From the NCBI GenBank assembly GCA_047404215.1, contig JBDOIV010000038.1:2220-66219 (forward strand): a DNA stretch of 64,000 bases, given 5' to 3'. Below are positions 54,829 through 54,856 of the stretch, one piece after another. The notes beneath the pieces are model-generated. The model did not search any database. It had not been told where the DNA came from and saw only the letters and a program-made list of their open reading frames with translations. The stretch's first letter is position 1. Every line of letters starts with the position of its first letter. The DNA comes from Rickettsiales bacterium (GTDB lineage Bacteria; Pseudomonadota; Alphaproteobacteria; Rickettsiales; UBA1997). Made by a program: the position numbers and the translations under genes.

Positions 54829-54856
54829 ATTATACAACGCTCATTTACAATGTCAA
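54829..54856 (-). promoter_or_regulatory. Promoter cassette copy driving the MBL-fold gene
   Basis: The reverse complement reads ttgacattgtaaatgagcgttgtataat, with the -10 element 36 nt upstream of the ATG at 54793. Confidence 0.55.

Follow-up and report, generated by a model that had tools for sequence, protein, structure and literature searches.

The window, by which we mean the whole 64-kb stretch of DNA that was analyzed, has a G+C content of about 36% and carries numerous housekeeping genes (polA, ftsZ, spoT, rpsB, tsf, pyrH, yebC, asd, mnmE, aroC, ilvBH, and genes for nuo subunits), together with genes for two giant ankyrin-repeat proteins and for many proteins without a Pfam or NCBIfam match. 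Six copies of a short promoter-like cassette (c1 to c6) are dispersed over its intergenic DNA, and five of the intergenic regions that bear them contain only about 20% G+C outside the cassette cores. The copies and the features next to them, including the ordinary promoters of the window (referred to as class B), are as follows.

1285–1312, plus strand: c1, TTGACATATAAAATGAACAATGTATAAT, in an accessory region
7828–7873, minus strand: c6, a rearranged copy, TTGACA-N17-TATAAT, with a box variant TGAATAATG at 7856–7864 and a second, exact box TGAGCGTTGTAT at 7828–7839
37458–37485, plus strand: c2, TTGACATTTAAAATGAGCGTTGTATAAT, starting 40 nt past the yebC stop codon
52445–52472, minus strand: c3, TTGACTTTTATTTTGAACGATGTATAAT, predicted polA promoter (polA ATG at 52286)
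52532–53926, plus strand: accessory unit of a class-B promoter (52532–52560) and a 444-aa orphan gene, inserted between the MBL-fold gene and polA on the strand opposite to theirs
54829–54856, minus strand: c4, TTGACATTGTAAATGAGCGTTGTATAAT, predicted to drive the gene for the MBL-fold hydrolase (start codon at 54793); the copy singled out in the sequence-only reading
54938–54966, plus strand: class-B promoter, TTGACA-N17-TACAAT with an ATATGa extended -10, divergent from c4 and predicted to drive the 499/405/634-aa genes
55013–59623, plus strand: three orphan genes of 499, 405, and 634 aa, without a Pfam or NCBIfam match, that form an accessory block between the direct copies c4 and c5
59712–59739, minus strand: c5, TTGACATTATAAATGAACGTTGTATAAT, at the predicted ancestral position beside the divergent CNNM promoter
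Starts at 1553, 7983, 13028, 37649, 41747, 52532, 54938, and 59787, all plus strand: class-B promoters found by a promoter scan

The sequence-only reading, made on this DNA earlier, had reported five regular copies, and TTGACWTNNWWWWTGARCRWTGTATAAT matched all five exactly at the positions claimed (n = 5 in the 64-kb window), compared with no match in 100 dinucleotide-preserving shuffles. The 15-mer TGARCRWTGTATAAT, searched with at most one mismatch, returned the identical five sites and no others in the 64-kb window (0.11 expected), and a position-weight scan of the whole window gave no additional cassette beyond the known ones. The flanks beyond the window, about 2.1 kb on the left (L037) and 4.5 kb on the right (L031), contained no extra cassette either, which brings the part of the genome covered to about 70 kb. 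An assembly artefact is excluded, as assemblies made independently from three sequencing runs all contain identical copies. The sixth copy had been described as a variant with an expanded middle at 7873 on the minus strand, and it proved to be real: its full sequence, CTTGACAT-ACTGAATAATGTATAT-TATAAT-ATTAC-TGAGCGTTGTAT, comprises a perfect TTGACA-N17-TATAAT promoter with TGAATAATG inside the spacer and the exact 12-mer TGAGCGTTGTAT 25 nt further on. This 12-mer is present three times in 64 kb, namely in c2, in c4, and, displaced just downstream of the rebuilt promoter, in c6. The latter copy looks compensated, as its spacer is shortened by 4 nt and this is offset by a rebuilt -10 element placed 5 nt downstream.

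Alignment of the copies delimited a conserved block of about 40 to 45 bp, extending from an upstream A-tract to roughly +1 and composed, in this order, of the A-tract, cTTGACAT, a variable A/T stretch, TGARCRWTG, TATAAT, and A-r-TAwTAg. The conserved box TGARCRWTG makes up the 3' half of the cassette spacer. The hexamers match TTGACA/TATAAT at 12 of 12 positions in c1, c2, c4, c5, and c6 and at 11 of 12 in c3, and the spacer is 16 bp long in five cassettes and 17 bp long in c6. All six cassettes have the near-consensus hexamers, 16 to 18 bp apart, of a sigma-70-type promoter, and they account for four of the seven perfect (12/12) promoters found in 64 kb. Based on this anatomy and on the placement described below, each cassette is predicted to be a complete, strong promoter of the sigma-70 (housekeeping) type that is able to fire.

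The sequence-only reading had started from the premise that promoter function as such needs no conserved spacer, and this turned out to be only partly right. Class-B promoters have the structure TTGACA-N17-TATAAT with a conserved ATATGn at positions -18 to -13 and belong to the extended -10 (TGn) type of sigma-70 promoters (ATATGnTATAAT); the same style is found in a distant relative, L039 (TTGACAgtaatccaaaaatatgcTATAAT). Since they carry ATATGn, a conserved 3' part of the spacer is normal in this window and represents an extended -10 element. The cassette box differs from a canonical extended -10. The likeness between them is a conserved TG at the 3' end of the spacer; however, the TG of the cassettes directly adjoins TATAAT (-14/-13), whereas in an extended -10 it lies at -15/-14, one base before the hexamer. 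Accordingly scored in the scan ("TG_before_second"), such a TG was present in the class-B promoters at 1553, 7983, 52532, and 54938 and in none of the cassettes. Furthermore, the cassettes differ in having a 16-bp spacer and a conservation that reaches 9 nt upstream of the -10 element, the conserved stretch T-21 G A R C R W T G-13 being longer than any extended -10.

These data bear on the idea that the box is intrinsic to the function of RNA polymerase, that is, that it tunes promoter strength via contacts with sigma or beta-prime as a non-canonical relative of the extended -10, and that the copies converged on an optimum or were kept at it. It would be in line with the conserved 3' spacer (ATATGn) of the ordinary promoters in the window and with the fact that the cassette TG is located at the same distance from the -35 element (positions 21–22) as the TG of class B. 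However, the displacement of the TG by one base, reflected in the negative scan result, speaks against it, and relatives with similar polymerases (L026, L028, L039) use the ATATGn type only. To our knowledge, there is also no RNA polymerase contact that matches TGA at -21 to -19 and C at -17. We consider this explanation very unlikely.

As far as the gene context is concerned, two copies are correctly placed for the minus-strand genes to which they had been assigned at the outset: c4 ends 35 nt before the ATG of the MBL-fold gene, and c3 ends 158 nt before that of polA. Every copy was also said to be near a plus-strand gene start, with most of the genes in question having a second promoter of their own; the measured distances are 114 to 354 nt, and the second promoters correspond to class-B promoters found by the scan. 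In particular, the genes downstream of c1 and c2 begin 272 to 327 nt away, and each has another promoter closer to it. Copy c1 is arranged in tandem with the class-B promoter at 1553, which lies 241 nt further downstream and serves a 512-aa orphan gene (1639–3177), and c2 is at the left edge of a window-specific insertion containing a 1290-aa ankyrin gene. Copies c5 and c6 are orphans, as both point at the 3' ends of opposite-strand genes. Of these, c5 is separated from the MBL-fold gene by the 4.9-kb block of the 499/405/634-aa genes and faces, in antisense, the 3' end of the 634-aa gene, and c6 faces the 3' end of a plus-strand thioredoxin-like gene. An all-against-all BLASTP comparison of the window proteins showed no homology among the MBL-fold protein, PolA, the 512-aa protein, and the 1290-aa ankyrin protein, meaning that the genes downstream of the cassettes are not paralogs. 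We also looked for RNA products. Folding of five stretches downstream of the cassettes gave z-scores from -2.2 to +1.0, with nothing convincing relative to shuffled controls; Rfam, at gathering thresholds, returned no match for the cassettes or for downstream RNA families; ARAGORN found no tRNA downstream of the cassettes; and the small open reading frames near them were just chance-like frames of 20 to 28 aa.

Close homologs of the MBL-fold protein that bear organism names derive from Rickettsiales, Rickettsiaceae, gammaproteobacterial MAGs, and 'Ca. Megaera', and exact matches to the window proteins are confined to a few Logan assemblies and one NCBI assembly, which points to an uncultured symbiont of Rickettsiales type as the source. 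The relatives that were compared with the window have the following protein identities to it.

L024/L025 and L035 (sister lineage): MBL 84%, PolA N-terminus 99%, YebC 89%
L034 (marine metagenome run): MBL 65%
L026: MBL 57%
L028/L039 (GCA_038131245.1): MBL 55–56%

A paper on marine Pelagibacterales cites SRR28395889, the run from which L034 derives.

In L034, the gene order is CNNM (minus strand), a 148-bp intergenic region with one cassette (aaaaaatttcTTGACATTTATTTTGAACGATGTATATTagtaatagagc), and then MBL and polA. The downstream flank of this cassette (5'UTR and start of MBL) is orthologous to that of c4, its upstream flank beside the CNNM promoter corresponds to the position of c5, and there are no genes where the window has the 499/405/634-aa block. 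Judged from this comparison, L034 evidently represents the ancestral state, with a single cassette between the divergent CNNM and MBL-polA units. In L024, the insertion upstream of MBL consists of a 493-aa homolog and a remnant of only the 3' end of the 634-aa gene. This genome keeps the MBL copy, i.e., the ortholog of c4 (TTGACACTATAAATGAGCGTTGTACAAT), and has at the position of c5 a decayed sequence of the same length (TTTAAAATTGAGGTCAGATCTATAGAT), the aligned cassette of L034 being intact. Since L024 contains the insertion, keeps the MBL copy, and has lost the copy at the c5 position, the promoter was probably duplicated at or before the insertion of the block, after which the redundant copy would have been free to decay.

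The other copies are also associated with insertions. MBL and polA are direct neighbors in L026 and L034. A same-strand gene of 431 aa lies between them in L024, where there is no extra promoter and c3 is absent, whereas in the window an unrelated 444-aa gene cuts polA off from MBL, and polA has c3, which carries exactly the spacer of the MBL promoter in L034 (TTTATTTTGAACGATG). Likewise, yebC directly neighbors asd in L026 and L036. In L035, a 194-aa opposite-strand gene splits the pair, and in the window the gap is filled by c2, then a class-B promoter and the gene for the 1290-aa ankyrin protein; c2 is absent from this place in the sister L035, and the asd promoter does not differ between L035 and the window. 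In L039, the thioredoxin-like gene and glpX lie next to each other in convergent orientation, and the gap between them in the window holds c6, the class-B promoter at 7983, and a 248-aa orphan gene, so the comparison with L039 points to an insertion here too. The genes of the c1 region are unrelated to those of L039. A cassette copy is found near each lineage-specific accessory insertion in the window. A further sister copy, a c1-type homolog (79% over 61 nt), lies at 9203 on the minus strand of L024 and is convergent on the end of the polA gene; it has AATACACTG instead of the box, with the TGA lost, and retains TTGACT-N16-TATAAT.

The copies are related to one another beyond the promoter core, though not uniformly. 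Copies c4 and c5 align over 107 nt with 76.6% identity (E = 6e-14), and c1 has its closest paralog in c6, with 76.7% identity over 60 nt on opposite strands, the class-B promoters neighboring these two copies being alignable over 82 nt (78%). Copies c2 and c4 are 94% identical over 34 nt, and c1 and c5 are 80% identical over 45 nt. Three subfamilies can be distinguished: c2/c4/c5/L024, c3/L034, and c1/c6/L024-9203. Outside the core of about 45 bp, most pairs of paralogs are without significant similarity, which implies either that the copies are old, their flanks having been randomized and the box then selected, or that the copied unit was just about 45 bp long. The homology of c1 and c6 on opposite strands relative to homologous neighboring promoters had suggested an invertible switch of the fim type; this was rejected, as there are no convincing flanking repeats and only one orientation is present in the assemblies from three runs.

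No cassette was found at the orthologous MBL and polA promoters of L026 and L028. A scan of the GTDB species-representative genomes (596 Gb; the source organism is not among them) returned only 11 single matches in unrelated bacteria (Streptococcus, Jeotgalibacillus, and others), and a scan of the JGI metagenomes (again without the source organism) only nine single matches, several of which are orthologs of one unrelated promoter. Given these single, unrelated matches in the two collections, a widespread motif was rejected, and the cassette family appears, from all genomes compared, to be restricted to one uncultured Rickettsiales-like lineage.

These findings are best accommodated by the view that the cassettes are paralogous copies of one strong sigma-70-type promoter ("promoter propagation"), to which we assign a probability of about 0.58. 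The module would be about 45 bp long and consist of a UP-like A-tract, cTTGACAT, the A/T stretch, TGARCRWTG, TATAAT, and about 8 nt to the start site. Ancestrally, it would have been the sole promoter of an MBL-polA operon and would have pointed away from the adjoining CNNM promoter. Between housekeeping genes, accessory (orphan and ankyrin) genes would then have been inserted repeatedly, with the promoter being copied along. According to this scheme, c4 is presumably the copy that stayed with the MBL-fold gene and transcribes it, c3 the one that restored transcription of polA behind the opposite-strand insertion, and c5 the one left at the old position and now reading antisense, while c2, c6, and c1 might have arrived at the edges of other insertions. 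Copies c1 and c2 would add read-through transcription into accessory genes that own promoters, and c5 and c6 would make antisense or convergent transcripts, or none. Selection would retain a cassette only where it drives a gene, as may be seen in L024, where the MBL copy was kept and the orphan decayed. Several points weigh against promoter propagation. For the pairs without flank similarity, the duplicated unit may have been very short, or the copies may have converged on one optimal sequence. The orphans c5 and c6 keep perfect promoters without a gene, which is unexpected under common descent alone, except if they arose recently, and c6 even has the compensated look described above. Nor did terminal inverted repeats, recombinase or transposase genes nearby, or plasmid and phage matches, none of which were found, reveal a means of copying.

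This ordinary explanation, that is, promoter duplication coupled to the insertion of accessory genes, largely suffices, and no new type of element or mechanism is revealed. If true, the locus would nevertheless be an unusually clear case of natural promoter reuse, in which the ancestral promoter, its duplicates, the insertions, and the decay in a sister lineage are all readable by comparison, and in which the duplicates were made necessary by gene insertions, as with polA severed from its operon promoter. It would also show how a small symbiont genome with few regulators keeps its essential genes expressed during the shuffling of accessory (ankyrin or effector-like) genes.

A separate question is why the spacer is so well conserved. 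If the copies descend from one promoter, as in the history proposed above, the conserved spacer is mainly inherited, and common descent is the best reading for most of its conservation. The box is nonetheless less variable than the rest of the spacer. Over seven full copies, 3 of 9 columns vary in the box and 7 of 7 in the adjacent A/T stretch (Fisher p = 0.010), the mean pairwise differences being 0.16 and 0.46, respectively; the variable box positions are the same three (R, R, W) in paralogs and orthologs; and the box has 47% G+C inside intergenic DNA of 20% G+C. Its low variability and its G+C-richness in A+T-rich DNA make an additional constraint likely, and it is also likely, as judged from these figures, that the 3' half of the spacer is under purifying selection, probably via contact with a protein, the putative partner being a regulator or RNA polymerase.

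It is conceivable, then, that TGARCRWTG(TAT) is the operator of a lineage-specific factor, situated between the -35 and -10 elements (at +1 in c6), which co-regulates MBL, polA, and the accessory-adjacent transcripts, and that the spacer has been kept mainly by selection for binding. The significantly reduced variability of the box, its base composition, and the confinement of variation to the same R, R, and W positions all fit this possibility, as does the exact TGAGCGTTGTAT that recurs in the window and was displaced, in one case and outside a spacer, downstream of the rebuilt c6 promoter. Moreover, consensus promoters before genes of low expression such as polA would be sensible if they were normally repressed. 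On the other hand, the box has neither dyad nor direct-repeat symmetry. The sole protein of a DNA-binding family encoded in the window is YebC, and nothing ties YebC to the box. The L024 copy at 9203 has lost the box sequence and still keeps its promoter hexamers, the genes served share no function, and the conserved region takes in the entire promoter, beginning with the A-tract and reaching about +1, which is more than an operator-sized patch. Finally, the extended homology and the subfamilies indicate descent. We regard it as unlikely that an operator is the main cause of the conservation. A literature search for the box sequence returned unrelated primers alone, and none of the LexA, CtrA, cre/LacI-type, Fur, RirA, sigma-32, and ECF consensus sequences, compared by eye, fits it. 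The sequence-only reading had offered two options for the conserved spacer, and they fared unequally: a duplicated module is well supported by the extended homology, the subfamilies, the lineage restriction, and the insertions, while an overlapping regulator site has in its favor the lower variability of the box but against it the missing symmetry and the loss of TGA in the sister homolog. A possible regulator site in the spacer is the sole part of the locus that could gain interest.

A more elaborate version takes the box as the operator of a lineage-specific global regulator and the orphans c5, c6, and L024 9203, all of which are convergent at gene 3' ends, as antisense or "collision" promoters kept because they insulate or silence accessory or effector genes in a genome nearly without intrinsic terminators. 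Were this so, newly inserted genes would be domesticated by the promoter module, which would act as a portable regulatory unit; we find it quite unlikely.

Since cassettes are found near the edges of four insertions, we also considered that they might be att-like or homology sites for the integration and excision of accessory modules, with arrays of the type c3-[444 aa, MBL]-c4-[499/405/634 aa]-c5. Indeed, c3, c4, and c5 are direct repeats that bracket gene blocks, the protein phylogenies are mosaic across the CNNM-MBL intergenic region, and in strain L002 a rearrangement junction is located exactly at the -10 element of a neighboring promoter, that of the 444-aa gene. However, no integrase or transposase domain was recognized among the neighbors, and, unlike att, attC, or dif-like sites, within which the junctions fall, c3 lies about 84 nt inside the 444-aa insertion, counted from the polA-side junction. 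Besides, one of the "blocks" includes the ancestral MBL-fold gene, c1 and c2 are oriented the other way relative to their cargo, and the sequence is that of a textbook promoter, all of which makes a dedicated recombination site highly improbable. A dif/Xer site was rejected as well; ATAATGTATATTAT in c6 resembles the center of E. coli dif, but the arms match at only 5/11 and 6/11 positions by eye, and the normal cassettes fit worse. The L002 junction and the mosaic phylogenies give a hint that short-homology recombination at promoter sequences may reshuffle this region.

With regard to known systems, the cassette was compared with dispersed repeats, overlapping operators, and mobile promoters. 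The plasmid backbones of the IncP group offer a case in which KorA and KorB operators overlap many promoters and one repressor is shared. The likeness consists in several promoters of one replicon with a common sequence in or beside the spacer; however, the KorA/KorB operators are palindromes with repressors encoded nearby, whereas the cassette has no symmetry and no candidate repressor in the window and is found before chromosomal housekeeping and accessory genes. The best-known repeats of the order are the Rickettsia palindromic elements. Other promoter-bearing dispersed repeats, such as the Correia elements of Neisseria, ERIC, and REPIN, are short intergenic repeats, some of which supply promoters to their neighbors (PMC3575422). 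All of these have terminal inverted repeats or palindromes and transposon-like insertion signatures, whereas the cassette has none, nor does it have a downstream RNA structure or an Rfam match. The inverted repeats around the copies were only low-complexity A/T ones, unlike the terminal inverted repeats or palindromes and the target-site duplication expected of MITE- or IS-derived repeats. Plasmid and phage collections contained no sequence similar to the cassette. An origin from a mobile element was consequently rejected, given the lack of terminal inverted repeats, of a recombinase or transposase among the neighbors, and of a plasmid or phage match.

The closest parallel is provided by putative mobile promoters, i.e., highly similar promoters before unrelated genes of one genome, without a recognizable mobile element, for which a role in rewiring or rescuing transcription has been suggested (Matus-Garcia, Nijveen & van Passel, NAR 2012; Nijveen et al. 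2012, PMC3575422). The cassettes resemble them in these respects and would work in the same manner. The survey of mobile promoters asked for 80% identity or more across a minimum of 50 nt between positions -150 and -50, which mostly excludes the -10 element (Matus-Garcia et al. 2012; PMC3575422), and our best pairs (76.6% over 107 nt, 76.7% over 60 nt, 94% over 34 nt, and 80% over 45 nt) are just below it. In contrast to mobile promoters, the cassette unit is shorter (about 45 bp) and comprises a complete core promoter, and its ancestral copy and the insertions can be identified from relatives.

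The region that holds CNNM, MBL and polA carries a mosaic phylogenetic signal when the window is compared with L024, a locus of the sister lineage, and L034, a locus of a more distant relative from a marine metagenome run. For CNNM (window 59853-61145), the N-terminus is 94% identical between L024 and L034, whereas that of the window is only 88-90% identical to either. For MBL (window 53972-54793) and polA, in contrast, the window groups with L024 as its sister (84% and 99%, respectively), with L034 as the outgroup. This discordance suggests recombination between lineages, with a putative breakpoint in the CNNM-MBL promoter region. 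A further difference was found upstream of the 444-aa gene, where the sequence of strain SRR27602012 (L002:3190-3215) departs from that of the window (52540-52565). The junction falls precisely at the -10 element (TATAAT) of the promoter of this gene: TTGACTtatcttctaaaatgtga stands where the window has the -35 element and the spacer, and beyond it come two unrelated genes rather than c3 and polA, the gene for which c3 is the predicted cassette promoter.

The ordinary promoters, which are distinct from the cassettes, have in common TTGACA-N17-TATAAT together with ATATGn at -18 to -13.

1553, 7983, 13028, 37649, 41747, 52532, 54938 and 59787, all plus strand: ordinary promoters of the window

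Some of them are homologous to one another well past the core, though the genes downstream are unrelated, as exemplified by the regions 1509-1588 and 7939-8018 (78% over 82 nt). The sister lineage, in turn, contains a promoter resembling the cassettes.

L024:9174-9203, minus strand: cassette-like promoter TTGACTTATAAAAAATACACTGTATAAT, immediately after an ankyrin gene

It is homologous to c1, one of the cassette copies of the window (79% over 61 nt), and its box, the counterpart of TGARCRWTG, is devoid of TGA. This promoter is directed into the 3' end of polA; with the orphan cassettes c5 and c6, it makes three cassette-type promoters placed convergently at gene 3' ends. Intrinsic-terminator-like sites were not enriched in window 52200-60000 (one found versus 4.5 expected) or in window 1-9000 (seven versus 5.6).

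Among the proteins of the window, the 1290-aa ankyrin gene contains a repeated segment, at least some 45 nt long, that reads tgctagtcTTGAGAg.tcagatattgtaac.tTATTATtgca.

38091, 39333, 40620 and 41403, plus strand: four near-identical repeat segments within the 1290-aa ankyrin gene

These segments show a very recent expansion of internal repeats. The 634-aa orphan protein (57719-59623) is homologous to the non-ankyrin middle of the 1344-aa ankyrin protein (45061-49095), at 29% across some 500 aa (E=5e-46); these accessory proteins have a lineage-specific domain in common.

The asd gene of the window shows a change of frame.

41821-42868, plus strand: asd, ATG start at 41821, frame change around 41996-42005

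Its C-terminal 287 codons sit in the next frame relative to this ATG, and the shift maps to, or close to, a stretch of eight A (ggctaaaaaaaagtgg). In the sister lineage, asd is intact (348 aa); the shift in the window may mark a pseudogene, or else stem from a sequencing error or from slippage. Two further proteins deserve mention.

17389-20604, minus strand: class I aminoacyl-tRNA synthetase (I/L/M/V type), 1071 aa
128-1180, plus strand: ORF, only the C-terminal part of a larger protein

The synthetase has an unusual domain architecture: its catalytic and anticodon-binding parts are separated by an inserted GNAT acetyltransferase domain (Pfam Acetyltransf_3, residues 538-675). The protein containing the ORF comprises at least 1100 aa and extends past the left window end (1-3303 of L037, an assembly continuing leftward).
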